Shown: in pieces, positions 19,258 to 27,555 of the stretch
How the letters are laid out: every line of letters starts with the position of its first letter
How positions within the stretch are numbered: position 1 is the first letter of the stretch
Assembly (NCBI GenBank): GCA_019057385.1
Contig: JAHQJS010000004.1
Coordinates: 980,727-1,044,726 of the forward strand
Length of the DNA stretch: 64,000 nucleotides
Direction of reading: 5' to 3'
From: Candidatus Borrarchaeum weybense
GTDB taxonomy: Archaea; Asgardarchaeota; Sifarchaeia; Borrarchaeales; Borrarchaeaceae
Program-made: the position numbers and the translations under genes
Notes under the pieces: model-generated
What the model was told of the DNA's origin: nothing
Databases searched by the model: none
Seen by the model: only the letters and a program-made list of their open reading frames with translations

Positions 19258-20784
19258 ATGATGATTCAGACCATCAAACTCCGAATGTATCCTGATGAGG
19301 CACAAGAATATCAACTCCATGAAATCTTTACCATCTATAACCGGGTGAAACGCATTGGTTACAACCTGCTGTTTCATAACGAGGACTACATGGTAGAGCG
19401 CTTCGATGAGGGTAAAACCATCCAACAGTGTTTGATGAGTCTGTGCCACAATAACCCTTATGTCAATACTATCTTGATTGACAACAAGGCGCAACTGGAA
19501 TCACAAAAGACGTGGCTGGAAAAACGACGCACACGCATGACACAGCAGCTACAAGTCATCATCAAGAAAATCAAAACAATAAAAGAGAAAGATACACATG
19601 ACAGACGGTTGAAGGGCTTATACGCCCGTAGATCCTCAATAATGGCTAAACTGCGCAATTTACACCTCGAACCTGTGGTATTTGGCACTAAGAAATTATT
19701 CAGAGACAGAATACGCGGCAACATAAGTAGGGAAGAGTTCAGGATACGACGGGATTCTTCTTTCAGTTGCATTGGAAAGCAACAGGGAAAAAACCTGAAC
19801 ATTAAAGTATTGCCCAGAAAAACCGTCAAGATACGCACCTTTTCCAAGCAAAAAGGATGCAAATGGCTGATCATTTCCCTTTCCGTAAACTCTGTGCAGG
19901 AAAAATGGTTTCAAGATATTTTTAATTCCGACAAATACACGGTGACCGTGAAACGGAAGTTTTTCAAGGGGACGGTGCGTTATTTTGTCCATGTTTCTTA
20001 TGAAATTCCAGAACCTGTACCACGTTGTGGCTACGAACATGGTGCCATCGGATTAGATTTCAACTATAATTTTGTTGCCCTGACCAATGTCGATCAACAT
20101 GGTACATTACTCTCTTATCATACCATTTCGTTTTGCAACCTCCACAGCTATCGAACAAATAAACGTAGCGATTACATCTCTTATAAGATGGATAAAGTCG
20201 TCAATTATTGCATCAATAAGGGCAAGGGCATCGTGGTCGAGGACTTACAATTCGGCCAAGAGTTTTACTATAATAAAAAACGCAACCGAAAATTCAGCAA
20301 TATGAAGACCACTGCCTTGCAGCTGTTAGAGAGAAAATGCAAAAAGCGAGGTGTGTCCTTTCGAAAGGTATTTCCTGGATATACCTCCATAATCGGGAGG
20401 TATAAGTATTCAGGATTACATAATTTGTCAACACATCACTTAGCAAGTTATGTAATAGCTCGAAGGGGTTTAGGTTTCAGGGAAGTCATTCCAGCCATCT
20501 ACGATTGGGTGTCCTCACAAGTCGGGGAGTTCATAGAACCCCGTTTGAAACAGGATAGTCCTTACCGTAGATGGTCGATGATCCATGACCTCTTCAAGCA
20601 CAGTGGGATAACTTCCTTCAAGGCTGCCGAAATACTTAAAAAAACAGTATTAATGAGGCATGTTTTGCACTCGGTGACGAGCGCACAGCCCGATAACCTT
20701 AAGGCTGGTTCTTCCTTCTTGAAAGCAGGGAGAATTGATGATTATTATAAAGTGTGGAATTTTATAACTAATCCCACATTATAA
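19258..20784 (+). CDS. tnpB: IS200/IS605 accessory TnpB-related RuvC nuclease (no adjacent TnpA)
   Basis: N-terminal TIKLRMYP, RuvC-I GLDFN, RuvC-II VVEDL, PGYTS, STHHLASYVIARRGLG. Confidence 0.8.
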   Translation: MMIQTIKLRMYPDEAQEYQLHEIFTIYNRVKRIGYNLLFHNEDYMVERFDEGKTIQQCLMSLCHNNPYVNTILIDNKAQLESQKTWLEKRRTRMTQQLQVIIKKIKTIKEKDTHDRRLKGLYARRSSIMAKLRNLHLEPVVFGTKKLFRDRIRGNISREEFRIRRDSSFSCIGKQQGKNLNIKVLPRKTVKIRTFSKQKGCKWLIISLSVNSVQEKWFQDIFNSDKYTVTVKRKFFKGTVRYFVHVSYEIPEPVPRCGYEHGAIGLDFNYNFVALTNVDQHGTLLSYHTISFCNLHSYRTNKRSDYISYKMDKVVNYCINKGKGIVVEDLQFGQEFYYNKKRNRKFSNMKTTALQLLERKCKKRGVSFRKVFPGYTSIIGRYKYSGLHNLSTHHLASYVIARRGLGFREVIPAIYDWVSSQVGEFIEPRLKQDSPYRRWSMIHDLFKHSGITSFKAAEILKKTVLMRHVLHSVTSAQPDNLKAGSSFLKAGRIDDYYKVWNFITNPTL

Positions 20785-20789: not shown

Positions 20790-20918
20790 TGTAAGGTTTA
20801 AGAATATCCACATAATTTTTCTTGATTCCCAGTCCGTTTCGTAAGTTCAAAATTTGTCTTCCTCTTATAAGCTCTAAATTTAGAAAGTCAAATTAAGGAT
20901 TCAAAGGAGTTCCTAATT

Positions 20919-21335
20919 GTGAATAAACAAACTGATTTACAAAATAATAAGGAACTTTATGGCGTTTTCAATGAATTAAGGAACTATTTAGCCGGTATGG
21001 CTGCTGGTATGACTCGTGATGAAAGTTTAATACAAGAATTGATACCTCTTCTCTTTTGTAAAATTTATACTGAAAAAAATATAGATTTGAAAGATAAGTT
21101 TCGAGCAGAATCAAAAGAATCAGCCGGTGTTATAAAAAGGCGGATTTCAGCAATTTTCAAAATGGTTAAGAAAGAATTTGAGGATATTTTTGAAGAAGAG
21201 GAAAAAATTGATCTAAAGGCGGAATCAGTTAAGTTCATTGTCAGCAAGCTGCAAAATCATGATCTAACGACGGTGGATCAAGATGCAATCGGAAATCTGT
21301 TTGAATCCTTCCTTGGTCGATCGTAGCCAAAGATA
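20919..21335 (+). pseudogene. 5' part of an N6-adenine DNA methyltransferase (HsdM-like N-terminal domain), interrupted by insertion
   Basis: FNELRNYLAG..GMTRDESLIQELIPLLFCKIY...DAIGNLFESFLG aligns with FKDIKNHLYG..GITRDEALIQEIMNLLFCKIY...NAIGDAFEVFIG of 24093..26666; continues at 23694. Confidence 0.85.
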
Positions 21336-21427
21336 CCAATTTGCTCGTAGCTAAAACAACTAATACTGATACTAAAATGTTACTCAAGCAGATTTGATTG
21401 TTTTGTATAATTAGTAGATGGTATCTA
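21331..21427. repeat. Long imperfect inverted repeat at the left junction of the insertion
   Basis: agatacca/tggtatct, tttgct/agtaga (with G-T pairs), aaaacaa/ttgtttt nested arms. Confidence 0.55.
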
Positions 21428-21523
21428 GTGTACAACTGATTTTCTCATTATTTACAAACAACTAAAATCTCAAATAACGTCTATAAACCACGAAAATTTA
21501 CTATCATACTTTTACTGTGGTCT

Positions 21524-21566
21524 CTCTCTAGTAAAATATATTATATTTCATAATTTTTCTAGAGAG
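21524..21566. promoter_or_regulatory. Palindrome flanking the TATA-like promoter of the cas7-like gene (possible operator)
   Basis: ctctctagtaaaat ... atttttctagagag around an AT-rich TATA-like stretch. Confidence 0.45.
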
Positions 21567-21595
21567 CATGTATGTATTCTATCGAGGTTGTAAAC

Positions 21596-22408
21596 ATGAA
21601 ACAAACAAAAAAACAGATCGTGGTTCGTGCCTATACTCCAATAGCTAAACCTCATAATGTGTCTATTCAAAAAAATTCCACTATGCTTCTTCTAGGTGAA
21701 ATTTCTTATGAAAGTGGTTCGAAAGCATTCAATACAAAACTGTATTACATTAAAGGGGTACGCGGAATGTTGAGGCATGCCGCCATGTCTCTTGCTCAAG
21801 ATTGTGGTATAGAAGTCTGCCATTCCAGTGAAAAAACTGAGCTCAAAGATGGGACTCAACTCGTTCCTTCTGGTTTCCATCCTCTTGGCTCATGTGATCC
21901 TCCTTGTATTCTCCGAAGAATCTTTGGCACCTTCCGCGAAGAATCCTCAATCTCCGTCTTAGTTGATCCTATTGCTTCGATAAAGCATAAAGAATACACT
22001 ACTGAGTTACCTGCTCAAAAAGTCCATATCGCCACTGAAAATAGGATAGCCCTTACTTATGATAGAACGGCTATTCAAGATTTTCGTGAAAGCTATTTCA
22101 GCGGGTATTTTAACTTCGTAATCGACATCACAAATTTAACCGATGATGAGATCAAGTTCATCGTGGAATCGTTGCTCTACATCGAAACACTTGGCAGTGG
22201 CAAAAATGCTGGTTATGGATATATCAAGATTCTAGAGGTCGAAATCCAGAATGTACATGTTTTGCGAAACATCACGATGGATAACGGAGTATATAAGATC
22301 ATTGAAGAAATCGAAGTAAAACCGATACTACTTGAAAACATCGAAGAATGGAGAAACGCGTATATGAGAGAAAATCTGATAAAAATTGAACAACAACACT
22401 CCACTTGA
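21596..22408 (+). CDS. Cas7-group RAMP protein (Csm3-like, Zn-binding insert)
   Basis: RAMP hallmarks: first strand ending TP (AYTP), KGVRGMLRH helix, C-H...H...C..C.LRRIFG, C-terminal G-rich loop LGSGKNAGYG; GAGGT RBS before ATG 21596 (alternative start 21572). Confidence 0.85.
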   Translation: MKQTKKQIVVRAYTPIAKPHNVSIQKNSTMLLLGEISYESGSKAFNTKLYYIKGVRGMLRHAAMSLAQDCGIEVCHSSEKTELKDGTQLVPSGFHPLGSCDPPCILRRIFGTFREESSISVLVDPIASIKHKEYTTELPAQKVHIATENRIALTYDRTAIQDFRESYFSGYFNFVIDITNLTDDEIKFIVESLLYIETLGSGKNAGYGYIKILEVEIQNVHVLRNITMDNGVYKIIEEIEVKPILLENIEEWRNAYMRENLIKIEQQHST

Positions 22409-22482
22409 TTAGTTGTGAAAGGGCGTGAGAAATAATGGAGATTTTCTCTTCTAAGACGCTCATCGCCCGCTTTTTCTCAGCT

Positions 22483-22606
22483 AAGACGGAATACTTCTTG
22501 TAATCTGCAAGAAGCACGTTCTTATGTGAGAGACAGTTATTATAGAGGTCCCAAACCTCGGTTGATGGGGAAAGAATGTCCGGCAGAGGGATGAATAAAA
22601 CGATAA
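22483..22606 (+). ncRNA. Structured repeat copy A (candidate guide-RNA scaffold)
   Basis: Homologous to 23573..23694; AAGACGGA-hairpin-CGTTCTT, GAGAC, GAGG-TCCCA-CCTC hairpin, ends GATAA. Confidence 0.65.
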
Positions 22607-22708
22607 CTACTTTACCAAAAGGGTTACAAAAGCCGTTACTTTCCCATGGTCTTATATCTCCCGTTTAAATGACAAAAAATTTAAAACATCCTATAGTGGT
22701 GCTGAAAA

Positions 22709-23512
22709 ATGCCAAAAAGATGGTTTAAATTATCTGGTGTAACTAAAACTCCAGTGATCACGAAAAAAAGACATTTTTTTCATAAATTTGGGGTAATTAC
22801 CATTAATGGTAGTCCTAGAGTGTTCGGTAAACTTACGAAAGGTGAGAGACGCGCTCCTATGACCTTTAGGGCATGGCATGGAACAGTAGAGTTTATTATT
22901 CCTCACTCAAAACTCGAACCAGCGCTCGCTATTGAAAGTATCGGGAGATATACCCATGAAGGGATGGGGCAAATACTGTGGACAAGTGTAAAACAACTCC
23001 CCAAAAGACCTCTCTATACTCCAAAAAAAATTAGGATTCGTAAAATGCTCCCAAAACTTTCAGATACATGGGAAAAACTAATGATCGCCATGTTACTACA
23101 TGATTTCGTGAATACTGAAAAACATTCCAGCAAAATTTACTCTGAGGTTACTATCGTTGATGACGACGTATATAATCTAGCGAAAAATCATCATAATTAC
23201 GAGATGGATGAAAGGGAATTGCCCCTCCTCGCTACCCTCCAACATTATGACCAAGTTTCTTCCTCAATTTCTCGAAAGTTTAGGTGGTCTACCTCCTCAC
23301 GTTATCGTGCAGATATTCAAGAGAAAATAGATTTTGATACACTAAAAAGAGAGATAGAATTGAGAAAACATTCTCTTTATGCTCTTTATAGCTTCATCTA
23401 TAAGTCTCAAGTACTTAATGAGATCAATGAGGCAATAGAATTTGGTTTCTCTTCTTTAAAAAACCATCTTCTTCTGATGGTCAATCTCTTTCTTGATGAC
23501 CTTTATGGATGA
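22709..23512 (+). CDS. Minimal Cas5-like RAMP fused to a circularly permuted (Cas10-type) HD nuclease
   Basis: N-terminal FKLSGVTKTP strand and G-loop IGRYTHEGMGQI; C-terminal LLHDF, HH, YD..SS..R and terminal SLKNH (first HD His motif moved to the end, as in Cas10). Confidence 0.75.
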   Translation: MPKRWFKLSGVTKTPVITKKRHFFHKFGVITINGSPRVFGKLTKGERRAPMTFRAWHGTVEFIIPHSKLEPALAIESIGRYTHEGMGQILWTSVKQLPKRPLYTPKKIRIRKMLPKLSDTWEKLMIAMLLHDFVNTEKHSSKIYSEVTIVDDDVYNLAKNHHNYEMDERELPLLATLQHYDQVSSSISRKFRWSTSSRYRADIQEKIDFDTLKREIELRKHSLYALYSFIYKSQVLNEINEAIEFGFSSLKNHLLLMVNLFLDDLYG

Positions 23513-23572
23513 GTTTTTATGTCACAAGTTATGGTGTTGCAATCCCTCTTTACAGATAAATATACAGGATGC

Positions 23573-23694
23573 AAGACGGACTGTTCATCGCATATCGCGA
23601 TGAACACGTTCTTGTACATGAGACTGAACCCGAGAGGTCCCACGCCTCAGATGACGGGAATGGATGACAGGCCAAAGGACGAGAAAAGTGATAA
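23573..23694 (+). ncRNA. Structured repeat copy B (candidate scaffold ending at the element's right junction)
   Basis: Perfect 10-bp hairpin TGTTCATCGC/GCGATGAACA with compensatory changes relative to copy A; ends GATAA immediately before the resumed MTase codons. Confidence 0.65.
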
Positions 23695-23755
23695 ATACGG
23701 ACACTTTTTCACGCCAAGAAACGTTGTCAGATTCGCTATTACCATTAATGATCCT
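23694..23755 (+). pseudogene. Resumed fragment of the interrupted methyltransferase
   Basis: YGHFFTPRNVVRFAITINDP matches EGQFFTPRNVVRMAVEILDP of the intact paralogue; homology then stops. Confidence 0.8.
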
Positions 23756-24092
23756 AGGAATGGTAATGGCATCCTCCCTATTTTTTTATTTTTTCAATAA
23801 TAGTTTTACATGAACCTCTCTTTTAAAAAAATGCCATTCATCCACATTATCATAGAAACTTCTAGCGAGATTACTAAGACTTGCCCAGAGCATCTATCTA
23901 TAACACACGAAAGATCAAACTTACTATAACAAAATAAACGTCAGAGGGGTTCTGGTAAAATGCTTCATAATTTTGAATAGTTTTGTCGGTTCCCCATACA
24001 ATTTTATAGATGTTGTTTGCAAAAAAGAACATCAAATTAGATTTCCTAGTTTTTTAACTTAAGTCAATGATTGCTCAGGTTGGTTAAGAATT

Positions 24093-26666
24093 ATGCCGAC
24101 ACGAACGAAATCAGTTGAAAAGGTTTCCTTTGCTGAGGAACGCGTCAAAGGACAGATGAGACTTATTGATTTTATTTCTGGAAGTTTAGTTGAAGCCACA
24201 CCTGAAGAGGTAGAGGCTGTTCAGGTCTTTTCTCGCAGATTGGTCGAAGAGTTTGGATATGATAAAAATCAAATCCAAACAAGACCTCAATTTAAAATCC
24301 GGGGCGCACCGTCAGGTAAACCAAAATATCCTGTTGACATAGCCGTCTTTAATGACGAAAAAAAAACCCATGGCAACTTGTTTATGATTGTCGAATGCAA
24401 ACGAAAGACTCGTCGAGATGGAGAAAAGCAACTGAAAATATATTTGGGACTATCAAGTGCTCAGATAGGAGTTTGGTTCAATGGTAGTGAGCACCTCTAC
24501 CTACAGAAGATTCTCGACAAAGAGGGAAATGTAACCTACAATTTAATTCCCACGATTCCCAAAAAAGGACAAAGAATTGAAGATATTGGCAAATACAAGC
24601 GAAAAAACCTGACGAAACCGAGTAATATAATCTCTTTGTTCAAAGATATTAAGAATCACTTATACGGAAACGTCGTAGGAATTACTCGTGATGAAGCTTT
24701 AATACAAGAAATAATGAATCTACTATTCTGCAAAATATACGATGAACTGAATACTGCTCCGGAAGATGATGTTGCTTTCAGAGTAGGAATCAATGAAGAC
24801 TCGAATCAGGTCAAGGAGAGAATCTCTGAGCTATTCAAGTTTGTGAAAATAGCATACGAGGATATCTTCGAAGAGCGAGACGAATTACGTCTTGATCCTG
24901 ACTCACTTTGTTATGTTGTTGGCGAATTGCAACCTTATAGTCTGTCAGAAGTAGATAGTAACGCAATAGGCGATGCGTTCGAGGTATTCATTGGAAAGGC
25001 GCTCAAGGGTGCCGAGGGGCAGTTTTTTACACCTCGAAATGTGGTTCGAATGGCTGTTGAGATACTTGACCCACAACCCTACGAACATATCGTTGATCCT
25101 GCATGCGGTAGCGGAGGTTTCTTAATATTTGCAATGGAACATGTGTGGCAAAAACTTAAGATTGAAGCTAAAAGAAAGAATTGGTCAACCGAAATGCTAC
25201 AGAAAAGAAAGACAGAAATTGCGAGCAAATTTTTTGGTGGAATTGACAAGGACATGTTCCTAGCAAAAGTCACAAAGGCTTACATGGCACTAATAGGTGA
25301 CGGTAGAGGCGGAATATTCTGTGAAAACTCTTTAGAATTCCCAGAAAAATGGCAGGCGACTACCCAACAAAGAATAATGCTTGGTAAATTTGATGTTCTA
25401 TTTACTAATCCTCCCTTCGGATCAAAGATCACTATCAAGAAATCATTGTATTCTCAGTTCGAGTTAAGCTTTAAATGGAATAAAAACAAAAAAACTGGTA
25501 AGTGGAAGAAGGGTAATAAACAGGCAGACAAAAGACCACCGCAAGTTCTGTTTATTGAGCGATGTTTACAATTTCTTGCTCCAAACGGAAGAATGGCAAT
25601 CGTTTTACCTGATGGTTTATTAAGCAATCCCAGCGATGGTTATATTACACAGTATATCAAGGATAATGCTGAGATCATTGGACTCGTCGATTTACCAATG
25701 AGTACTTTCTTACCTAATACACCCACGAAGACACATATTTTGTTCTTAAGAAAGAAAAAACCTGAGGGGAACTATCCAATCTTTATGGCCTACGCGAAAA
25801 CTTGTGGACATGATAAGAGAGGGAAGATCATCTATAAAGTCGGTGAAGCTGGTCAAAATGTTGTTGATGATGACATTTATGAAATATCAAAGCATTTTGC
25901 TCGCAGATATGAAAGAGTTAATAAATATGATAGGAAGGGATTTCTTGTTTATCTTGACGATTTAAAGTCAGGTATACTGTTACCGAAATATTATAATCCA
26001 GAATTGAATGAGAGATTAGAAGCGTATCGACAGACTGGTGAATATGACGTTTATTCTATAGGTGATTTAGTTAAACTGGGAAAGTTGTGGATAAGGAGAG
26101 GCCATGAAGTCGGATCTGTGAATTATGGAACTGGCGATATCCCGTTTATTCGGACTTCGGAAATATCAAATTGGGAACTAACTGCCGATCCTACTCATTG
26201 TTTAGCCGAGGATATATACGAGGAATACAAGGATCGCCAGAAACTAAAAAAAGATGATATCTTAATTATAAATGATGGTACGTACCTAATGGGTCGAACC
26301 GCGATACTTTCTGAAAATGATACAAAAATTGTTGTTCAAAGTCACATCAGAATTCTTACAGTCTTAGACCGAGAATTTATTCACCCTTATCTTTTGTTGT
26401 TCCTCTTAGGATTGAGAATTGTTCAAGAACAGATTGAGTCGAAATCCTTTAGACAAGCTACTATCTCTACTCTAGGAAACAGACTTCTTGAAATCAGAAT
26501 CCCACTACCAAAAGATGAAAAAGTAAGAAAAGAAATTGTTGAGCAAGTTTCTAACATAGTTGAGAAGCGCTCGATGCTAAGACATAAGGCGATGAATATT
26601 GAATTCAATGGAACATCAGAGAGTGTTATGGGTATAAAAAACAAGGCAACCTTGGGAAATCTATAG
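24093..26666 (+). CDS. Fused restriction-modification enzyme: HSDR_N-like PD-(D/E)xK nuclease + N6-adenine MTase + HsdS-like TRD (type IIG-like)
   Basis: VDIAVF..IVECK, GQFFTPR, DPACGSGGF, NPPF, C-terminal TRD (GDIPFIRTSEI, DDILI...G..GR.A, IPLP). Confidence 0.88.
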   Translation: MPTRTKSVEKVSFAEERVKGQMRLIDFISGSLVEATPEEVEAVQVFSRRLVEEFGYDKNQIQTRPQFKIRGAPSGKPKYPVDIAVFNDEKKTHGNLFMIVECKRKTRRDGEKQLKIYLGLSSAQIGVWFNGSEHLYLQKILDKEGNVTYNLIPTIPKKGQRIEDIGKYKRKNLTKPSNIISLFKDIKNHLYGNVVGITRDEALIQEIMNLLFCKIYDELNTAPEDDVAFRVGINEDSNQVKERISELFKFVKIAYEDIFEERDELRLDPDSLCYVVGELQPYSLSEVDSNAIGDAFEVFIGKALKGAEGQFFTPRNVVRMAVEILDPQPYEHIVDPACGSGGFLIFAMEHVWQKLKIEAKRKNWSTEMLQKRKTEIASKFFGGIDKDMFLAKVTKAYMALIGDGRGGIFCENSLEFPEKWQATTQQRIMLGKFDVLFTNPPFGSKITIKKSLYSQFELSFKWNKNKKTGKWKKGNKQADKRPPQVLFIERCLQFLAPNGRMAIVLPDGLLSNPSDGYITQYIKDNAEIIGLVDLPMSTFLPNTPTKTHILFLRKKKPEGNYPIFMAYAKTCGHDKRGKIIYKVGEAGQNVVDDDIYEISKHFARRYERVNKYDRKGFLVYLDDLKSGILLPKYYNPELNERLEAYRQTGEYDVYSIGDLVKLGKLWIRRGHEVGSVNYGTGDIPFIRTSEISNWELTADPTHCLAEDIYEEYKDRQKLKKDDILIINDGTYLMGRTAILSENDTKIVVQSHIRILTVLDREFIHPYLLLFLLGLRIVQEQIESKSFRQATISTLGNRLLEIRIPLPKDEKVRKEIVEQVSNIVEKRSMLRHKAMNIEFNGTSESVMGIKNKATLGNL

Positions 26667-26718
26667 TACCTTAGTTGATTTTTGGTCTCTTATATATCTA
26701 AGAATATAAGTTAAAGGC

Positions 26719-27555
26719 TATAAAATCGATAAGAATGGAGATAAACAACTCGATGATGATCTTTTGCAAATAGGTAAGCGATATCATGATCTACGTCAAA
26801 ATTTTAATGAAAAATATGACCATCTAGGTTTTTTCATTGACGTACAGAATTTAAAAAAAGGAATTCTCATGCCAAAATATTACAACCCAGAAATCAAGAA
26901 TGAATTAAGGAGGCTTAAAGAAACAGGCCATTATGATTTGGTAAGTATTGGAGAGTTGGAGGGACAAAACACACTCCAGATAAGTTGTGGTCACGAGATA
27001 GGTTCTATAAATTATGGCACAGGAGATATTCCTTTCATTCGCACCTCTGAAATAAGTAACTGGGAGATTGCAGCAGATCCGACTCATTGTGTTTCAGAAG
27101 ATATCTATGAGATGTACAGAACAAAGCAGGATCTACAGAAAGACGATATTCTTATTGTAAATGATGGGACCTACTTAGTTGGTCGAACTGCAATTCTATC
27201 AGAATTTGATGTGAAAATTGTTATTCAAAGTCATTTTAGAAAAATTCGTGTTCTTGATTGGAGTGACTTGACGCCGTATCTTTTGCTTTATCTGTTAGGT
27301 TTGAGAATAGTTCAGAATCAAATAGAAGCGAAAACATTTCGCCAGGCTACTATCTCGACTCTTGGAAATAGACTGCGAGAAATCATTCTGCCTATTCCAA
27401 AGAATTCCAAACTTAAAGCAGAAATTTCTGAAAGTGTAGAACTCATCGTTGGGAAACGTGCAAAATTACGGAATCAGGCTATGCACATGCAATTTGATGA
27501 TAAAAAAGAGAATGTGATGGGACTGCAAAATAAAGCAGCCCGTGGTAATATCTAG
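26719..27555 (+). pseudogene. 5'-truncated duplicate of the MTase C-terminus/TRD (or free specificity subunit from TTG 26764)
   Basis: Highly similar to the last ~270 aa of 24093..26666; in-frame homology (YKIDKNGDKQLDDDL vs YKVGEAGQNVVDDDI) extends upstream of the called start to a stop codon. Confidence 0.65.

Follow-up and report, generated by a model that had tools for sequence, protein, structure and literature searches.

We predict that a conserved block ending at positions 23692-23694 of the analysed DNA is the 5′ scaffold of an ARAMP guide RNA, and that its guide runs into the DNA that follows. Comparison of the sequences makes this reading fairly likely, and a system that was thought to be free of guide RNA would then probably have one. 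All positions refer to the window, the whole 64-kb stretch of the Candidatus Borrarchaeum weybense genome that was analysed. The proteins involved are those of the known ARAMP system; the literature that we searched appears to contain no description of the guide RNA, its pairing register, its promoter target or its placement at an element edge. That a flank-derived guide serves homing or retention is a further proposal, which our analysis leads us to regard as unlikely.

A two-gene module inserted in an MTase pseudogene

The module interrupts a pseudogene for an N6-adenine MTase (MAD2/type I-like). The left MTase fragment (20886..21335, + strand; NCBIfam MAD2, 2.6e-18) aligns with residues 168-303 of an intact paralog (24093-26666). 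It ends FLGRS*PKI at 21335, with ...AAG ATA as its last bases at the insertion point. The TAG in this fragment stands where the paralog has Leu and may be a one-base change from TTG. The right fragment (23696..23757, + strand; YGHFFTPRNVVRFAITINDP) begins YGHFFTPRNV at 23696; its sequence GHFFTPRNVVRFAITINDP aligns with paralog residues 308-328, and homology to the paralog then stops. The paralog itself, 400 bp downstream, reads FIGKA-LKGAE-GQFFTPRNV, with 5 residues separating the two aligned blocks. When 21335 is joined to 23696, exactly 5 in-frame codons result, matching the paralog, so the MTase carries a clean insertion of 2360 bp (21336..23695, + strand). The insert is a Cas1-less ARAMP mini-module that contains, from 5′ to 3′, the promoter region, the RAMP gene, scaffold A, the RAMP-HD gene and scaffold B.

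At the right junction, GATAA (23690-23694) is followed by TAC GGA CAC TTT TTC ACG CCA. A first-pass annotation of this DNA had proposed that the scaffold ends at the element boundary, and this is what we find: copy B ends where the MTase pseudogene resumes at 23696 with the 5-codon spacing. Its description of the junction is also accurate, as homology between copies A and B does stop at GATAA with MTase codons next, GATA does occur at 21332-21335, and the 7-mer GCCAAAG is present at both 21326-21332 and 23671-23677. The annotation considered the crossover uncertain by about 15 nt on account of this 7-mer. The uncertainty disappears because 23671-23694 is conserved scaffold in all members of the family, which makes the GCCAAAG match coincidental; a crossover at that point would fall within conserved scaffold and leave 10 codons, not 5. 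The junction is bounded by 23694-23698 (to about 3 nt), and the reading frame favours the step from 23695 to 23696.

The same insertion is present in a metagenome strain (L083) that is 94-97% identical. Our search for an empty-site allele of this MTase locus found none, L083 being the one close strain. There is no target-site duplication at the window insertion or at 8 loci elsewhere in this genome (G000), and no conserved left end, as 21336-21571 has no homolog in any locus compared.

Directly upstream of the truncated MTase fragment, outside the RAMP module, there is a TnpB-related ORF of 508 aa (19258-20784, + strand; NCBIfam guided_TnpB 4.6e-10, below the cut-off), which may have removed the MTase N-terminus. 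Beyond about 23757, the intact MTase (24093-26666; 857 aa, with specificity domains) is followed by a specificity-domain ORF of 263 aa (26764-27555). The region 23758-27555 is a rearranged R-M island.

Proteins of the module

The first gene (21572..22408, + strand) encodes a Cas7/Csm3-like RAMP protein of 278 aa (Pfam RAMPs 5.1e-7, above the curated cut-off; PADLOC Csm3 5.5e-8). It has 80 homolog clusters, and every source with a taxon name is Asgard; the named sources are Promethearchaeota, Sifarchaeia, Hodarchaeales and Heimdallarchaeota. One congener among the genomes compared is Ca. Borrarchaeum yapensis. The second gene (22709..23512, + strand) encodes RAMP-HD ('Cas5-HD'), a protein of 267 aa in which a small N-terminal RAMP domain is fused to an HD-motif domain. 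Residues H131 D132, H161 H162, D181 and H253 are invariant across 27 homologs. The protein has no Pfam match. Its AF2 model has a pLDDT of 87.8, and the top Foldseek matches are nearly all class 1 RAMPs (Csf3, Cmr3, Csm4, Csm3; probability 0.9-1.0, E of at least 0.012, low TM). Three of these (Csf3, Cmr3 and Csm4) are of the Cas5 group, and the matches have no power to separate Cas5 from other RAMPs.

In 6-7 of ten loci, a protein of about 1330 aa is encoded upstream, with an N-terminal DEAD/DEAH SF2 helicase and a C-terminal 350 aa with a casposase/Cas1-like fold (6opm, E 1.8e-8; 4n06, TM 0.60); the window's module has none. The Cas1 part is seen by fold only and has no Pfam or Atlas match by sequence. 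The 64-kb window contains no repeat-spacer CRISPR array.

The window module is a Cas1-less two-gene member of the known ARAMP system. ARAMP is an array-less, type III-derived CRISPR-like system of Asgard archaea with an enigmatic mechanism, characterized by diverged Cas7 and Cas5 homologs, an associated nuclease, the lack of an array and, in most loci, a distinct Cas1 (PMC8730458; PMC12669027). HRAMP is also an array-less CRISPR derivative of enigmatic mechanism, and these reviews, of 2022 and 2025, mention no guide RNA for either system (PMC8730458; PMC12669027). Full-text searches of the literature returned no description of an RNA associated with ARAMP or HRAMP. Makarova et al., in the CRISPR J in 2020, reportedly considered some such systems to be possibly not programmable.

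A distant ARAMP-like pair in the same genome (L020; G000 C5:80645-82208) has 41% identity in RAMP and 33% in HD. Its genes overlap, and a GC-rich segment lies downstream.

A family of structured scaffolds

The module contains two scaffold copies. The internal copy A (22479..22606, + strand) is degenerate and has the lowest covariance model score among module-linked copies (model R1, 93 bits); strain L083 lacks window positions 22497-22636, which is most of copy A. The terminal copy B (23569..23692, + strand, with the conserved block reaching 23694, about 126 nt) scores 137 bits with R1. It has a covarying hairpin, a long-range helix, a GAGGU/GCCUC hairpin and a single-stranded tail, the end of which is a putative 8-nt handle, AAAGTGAT (23685-23692). 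The two copies can be aligned over about 170 nt, and the last block that they have in common is GATAA plus a coincidental TAC.

Model R1, which was built from 25 copies, finds 25 scaffolds in this genome and 36 in four congeners (8, 3, 4 and 21). It finds none in a genome from a different family of the same phylum, and none was detected with it in distant ARAMPs (RAMP identity of 50% or less). Viral contigs hold no exact match to the scaffold core, and an Rfam search gave just a chance-level PreQ1 match, below threshold.

The structure is well supported by covariation. On 65 distinct sequences, 93.6% of cells are paired, compared with 40-59% when the partners are slid. Compensatory (both-side) changes occur in 14 of the 25 pairs, and the observed values were reached by 0 of 500 shuffles. 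Several pairs are mostly U-G, which would be C-A on the opposite strand; because U-G pairs are frequent on one strand only, the element appears to be a strand-specific, structured RNA. Many unpaired positions are also conserved in sequence.

About 20 terminal or solo copies are preceded by a TATA-like box, 25-33 nt ahead of the scaffold start and most commonly at -26/-25, which is the distance of an archaeal promoter. Copy B has no TATA at -26. At the scaffold end, oligo-T is absent and the first T4/T5 run comes 8 to >80 nt into the flank. Since the scaffold tail has no oligo-T terminator, transcription would be expected to continue into the flank.

Several arrangements of scaffolds were seen in addition to the module type. 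A small GIY-YIG gene (L017; G000 C4:903452-904077) is located between two terminal-type scaffolds (T, gene, T2), with a GTG start 4 nt past the first, and this layout is kept in G003 and G004. The wider locus (G000 C4:903-906k) has a scaffold after each gene in a cassette-like order: RAMP+I, HD+T, GIY-YIG+T2. Tandem scaffolds 33-134 nt apart occur at G001:C176:4697-4981 (L075), G001:C73:1184-1484 (L076) and G004:C9:1297-3020 (L068/L098). We rejected the tight tandems (33-40 nt) as repeat-spacer units: what looks like a spacer is the TATA promoter belonging to the scaffold that follows, and promoter and scaffold repeat together as a unit of about 160 nt. In another locus (L018; G000 C5:117952-119709), a 38-nt segment after an extra scaffold, X, recurs 52 nt past the terminal scaffold. 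This recurrence indicates an internal duplication or insertion that introduced the second T-type scaffold.

Sequence 3′ of the scaffold has the signature of a guide

In Cas1-linked sister loci, the block after the internal scaffold (P2), which also holds the TATA box of the HD gene, resembles a second block (P1) located just upstream of and across the TATA box of the RAMP gene. Within a locus, P1 and P2 are alike from the first base past the scaffold for about 46-51 nt; between subfamilies they are unlike. With the first base past the end of the model as position 1, the within-locus mismatches are at positions 4, 10, 16, 22, 28, 34, 40 and 46. In nine P1/P2 pairs compared over their first 38 positions, 40 of 54 register cells are mismatched (74%, close to the 75% expected under free drift) versus 11 of 288 cells elsewhere (3.8%). 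The hypergeometric P for the register is 7e-5 and 1.2e-5 in two representative lineages. In a third independent lineage, with a RAMP identity of only 60%, 7 of 10 mismatches are in register over 46 positions (P about 1.7e-5, from counts).

The pairs also change together. Between lineages, the guides differ at 10-17 paired (non-register) positions, and their own targets follow in 9/10, 14/14 and 16/17. The best non-self match in the genome for each internal guide is a RAMP promoter, with 30-32 of 33 paired positions (first 40 nt).

Class 1 Cas7 filaments pair with their target in 5-nt segments and leave every sixth base unpaired. Mismatches at every sixth base are thus the signature of a Cas7 guide and its target, which argues that the sequence 3′ of the scaffold is a guide. 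At the level of sequence, the comparison shows that in the sister loci the DNA immediately following the scaffold has the behaviour of a Cas7-type guide. Gene conversion or a shared operator is disfavoured because neither would spare exactly every sixth position. In lineage S2, P1 and P2 are nearly identical (36/38), and from the sequences recent gene conversion would fit this as well as selection does.

We extended the register backwards by hand on the sequences and infer that an 8-nt handle (AAA-N-GT-C/G-AT) precedes guide nucleotide 1, which is the last conserved A. Transferred to the window, this register puts the handle at 23685-23692 and guide nucleotide 1 at 23693.

Each P2 block (e.g., L012, L015, L014) has, about 50-80 nt past the internal scaffold and immediately behind the TATA box, an inverted repeat that is specific to its lineage. 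The repeat may serve the guide RNA as a 3′ hairpin or terminator, or it may be where the HD mRNA has its 5′ end. The ARAMP-like locus at about 80 kb of C5 (L020) has neither a scaffold detectable with model R1 nor a P1/P2 pair.

Guides in the window

The block after copy A (22607..22708, + strand) is a homolog of the guide and HD-promoter block (P2) of the sister loci. It scores 24-26 against the P2 blocks of subfamily 1 and 9 against its own RAMP upstream region. For copy B, the register taken from the sister loci predicts a guide at 23693..23740 (+ strand), of which nucleotides 1-3 (AAA) are element-encoded and the sequence from 23696 on is MTase. A T5 run at 23705-23709, corresponding to guide nucleotides 13-17, might end the RNA early, after about 13-17 nt.

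The first-pass annotation had suggested that flanking host DNA could become the guide. The structural part of this suggestion has independent comparative support: the 3′ sequence acts as a Cas7-type guide in the sister loci, and since the guide is the sequence 3′ of the scaffold and copy B is at the element edge, the terminal guide would be flank DNA by construction. A search of both strands of the genome for sites with at least 27 of 33 paired positions gave no target for the terminal, solo or copy A guides besides their own flank, and plain BLAST of the flanks gave random 16-17-mers only. Terminal guides that match their own flank only are predicted by a TnpB-like arrangement in which guide equals flank and by a functionless by-product alike. 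The window module looks partly decayed, given that copy A has no target, is the weakest module-linked match to the covariance model and is deleted in sister strain L083.

Proposed mechanism

The RNA would consist of a structured body of about 118 nt and an 8-nt single-stranded handle (AAA-N-GU-C/G-AU), followed by the 3′ guide. Based on homology and the register, the RAMP-HD (Cas5-like) protein probably binds the scaffold RNA through handle and body, and Cas7-like subunits would line the 3′ guide. The internal RNA, with a guide of about 46 nt, is predicted to address the promoter of the RAMP gene in its own module, with the TATA box included. Because this RNA is sense to P1, and P1 is upstream of the RAMP transcription start, its partner would be the template DNA strand across BRE/TATA. 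Pairing with the template strand at P1 likely leads to autorepression of the module, as with CreR RNAs. As the known guide targets a promoter in the same genome, target binding is not automatically destructive. Copy B would be transcribed into the flank to give a guide of AAA plus MTase sequence.

The scaffold end coincides with the element boundary at many sites

Across 54 copies, information content is about 1-2 bits through G-T-[C/G]-A-[T/C]-A (1.1-2.0 bits at the last conserved bases) and 0.15 bits at the next base. Past the scaffold end there is a weak A/C-A/C-A preference over three bases, followed by background, with 0.15 bits at most from the fourth flank nucleotide on. Chance would not give a drop of this size. 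Pairwise homology among the ten module loci of this genome stops no more than about 5 nt from the scaffold end, and homology of the window module to the 9 other loci stops at 23689-23699.

For a test on unoccupied sites, scaffold flanks of G001-G004 were mapped onto G000, which placed 14 flanks at scaffold-free sites. Host homology restarts 3-10 nt past the model end in 12 of the 14 comparisons, most commonly at 3-4 nt; the two non-flush exceptions are at 67 nt and 420 nt. The modules are polymorphic for presence and absence among congeners, which shows that they move or are lost.

The DNA 5′ of the scaffolds is heterogeneous: some have a full module there, others the truncated end of an HD gene, and others unrelated cargo of a defence-like or housekeeping kind. 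Seven left junctions have no motif in common (...GATA, ...TCATTAA, ...CAATG, ...CCTTGA, ...CGTAG, ...AATACT and ...CTGAAG). The first-pass annotation had proposed to align many copies and see whether conservation always drops after GATA and whether left flanks end in GATA. The drop is there, as a sharp fall after GT[C/G]A[T/C]A in the 54 copies; the left junctions end in unrelated sequences. The idea that GATA is a target motif or a short duplication is abandoned on the same grounds, the right-hand GATA being the putative handle/guide junction.

Duplications were seen at two insertions. At G004:C95 there is a 7-bp duplication, and the insertion there runs 420 nt beyond the scaffold. At G004:C17 (L072), compared with G000 C6:708444-708480, a scaffold-ended insertion of about 1.1 kb is flanked by a 37-bp direct duplication, which is the 3′ end of a convergent 507-aa gene. 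All 4 mismatches between the duplicates are at third codon positions. This suggests two alleles of the gene end, and we rejected a Cas1-type staggered cut as the source of the duplication.

A hairpin repeat with a 13-bp stem (ATTCTACCTGAAA ... TTTCAGGTAGAAT; e.g., L016:418-465, G000 C4:747517-747564) is abundant in G001-G004, where it is often near scaffolds or island edges. It also occurs near some left edges; G000 has only 7 copies, and these are not tied to modules. At G004:C54, the repeat adjoins the 3′ half of a scaffold. In G000, the orthologous site is occupied by the C4:752-754k module, which indicates that this module was deleted at G004:C54.

Alternative explanations

One alternative is an extension of the best explanation, not a replacement for it. 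It applies the logic of TnpB and omega-RNA to class 1 parts: the terminal RNA reads into the flank, RAMP/RAMP-HD cleaves or marks unoccupied alleles, and recombination restores or spreads the element. We think that this is rather unlikely. The scaffold is flush with the element end and has the guide on its 3′ side, the HD nuclease domain has intact motifs, sister loci add an SF2 helicase (Cas3-like parts) and Cas1, and presence of the module is polymorphic among congeners. In addition, occupied-site DNA beside the target is complementary to the handle and could mark self as in type III. However, the left flanks are without a conserved motif, left ends and cargo are heterogeneous, and no empty allele of the window locus was found, the close strain having the same insertion. 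The sole guide with a known target points to a promoter in the same genome, which argues that binding is not automatically destructive, and the T5 run may shorten the copy B guide.

In its fullest form, this extension would make ARAMP a programmable, RNA-guided class 1 system in which single guides, each behind a large scaffold, take the place of an array. The terminal scaffold would deliberately capture the flank, and the unoccupied site would be recognised by Cas7/RAMP-HD, together with helicase-Cas1 in full elements, so that the element homes or is retained. We regard this as doubtful. If true, TnpB/omega-RNA would have a counterpart derived from CRISPR, through which Cas1 mobile elements might be linked to RNA guidance.

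A second alternative, which we find improbable, is that the scaffold is a recombination site acting at the DNA or single-strand level, or a protein-binding structural RNA. The flank would never be a guide, the likeness of P1 and P2 would come from a shared operator plus gene conversion, and the flush boundary would reflect joining of DNA by Cas1-helicase or another integrase. The cassette-like gene+scaffold units (RAMP+I, HD+T, GIY-YIG+T2, at G000 C4:903-906k) are in keeping with this, as are the tandem promoter+scaffold duplications, the Cas1 fold in sister loci, the 37-bp direct duplication around one insertion and the near-identity of P1 and P2 in S2. Yet a shared operator or gene conversion would not limit the mismatches to every sixth base, as is seen in three independent lineages. 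The conserved unpaired scaffold positions and the TATA box at a fixed upstream distance also speak against this alternative, and the third-codon-position mismatches in the 37-bp duplication suggest two alleles.

Less probable still is that the scaffold is a mobile 5′ leader (promoter plus Shine-Dalgarno-like end) for a downstream gene, with the flank as mRNA: many copies do end GGTGAT, with a start codon 1-7 nt further on (rps19e-like, GlmM-like, acyl-CoA-dehydrogenase-like and GIY-YIG genes, and G000 C4:1263001, with their own TATA at -26), but a start codon adjoins only 2 of the 17 terminal or solo copies in G000, one subfamily ends GTCATAC, which is not SD-like, the window flank is mid-pseudogene, and the 6-nt register of P1 and P2 is left unexplained.

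If the guide RNA reading is confirmed, ARAMP would provide a compact, naturally single-guide class 1 effector made up of one RNA and two small proteins. Experiments would have a clear handle in the P1 promoter target and in the rule on every sixth base, and the window would hold a concrete case of an element end placed so that host flank becomes the guide. Such a case is relevant to the question of how RNA guidance was joined with Cas1 integrases and mobile elements in archaea near the eukaryotic stem.

Comparison with known systems

The module resembles ARAMP in its Asgard host, its diverged Cas7 and RAMP-HD with nuclease motifs, its lack of an array and the Cas1-SF2 helicase fusion in 6-7 sister loci. 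Unlike in published accounts of ARAMP, we predict 1-3 copies per locus of a scaffold RNA of about 126 nt with a 3′ guide. The window copy differs from most ARAMP loci in that it is without Cas1 and helicase, as a 2.36-kb insertion.

In class 1 crRNPs, Cas5 binds an 8-nt 5′ handle, and a filament of Cas7 holds the spacer and flips out every sixth base. The ARAMP RNA would be like those of type I and III in having the handle 5′ and the guide 3′, a predicted 8-nt handle, Cas7-like and putatively Cas5-like protein partners, a 6-nt register that starts from guide nucleotide 6, and a guide of about 46 nt. It differs in the absence of a repeat-spacer array, of cas6 and of a recognised large or small subunit. 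The 'repeat' would be a structured scaffold of about 118 nt with its own promoter, and there would be one guide per RNA gene.

CreR is a Cas-regulating RNA from degenerate mini-CRISPRs (bioRxiv 10.1101/2023.03.10.532045). As with CreR and the Cas9 long tracrRNA, a guide inside the cas locus would pair with a cas promoter, and autorepression would be expected. CreR has a normal array alongside and limited complementarity, whereas here no other guide has a recognisable target, and the pairing would extend over about 46 nt.

In TnpB systems, the omega-RNA scaffold adjoins the right end of the element and the guide is transcribed from flanking DNA. Unlike IS200/IS605, the element here has no TnpB or TnpA and encodes RAMP and RAMP-HD only, which are class 1 RAMP proteins; the TnpB-like ORF (19258-20784) is outside it, and there is no conserved target-adjacent motif in the left flank and no conserved left end. 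The element is like the TnpB/IscB omega-RNA arrangement of IS200/IS605 in that its predicted scaffold adjoins the right end, with the flank in the position of the guide.
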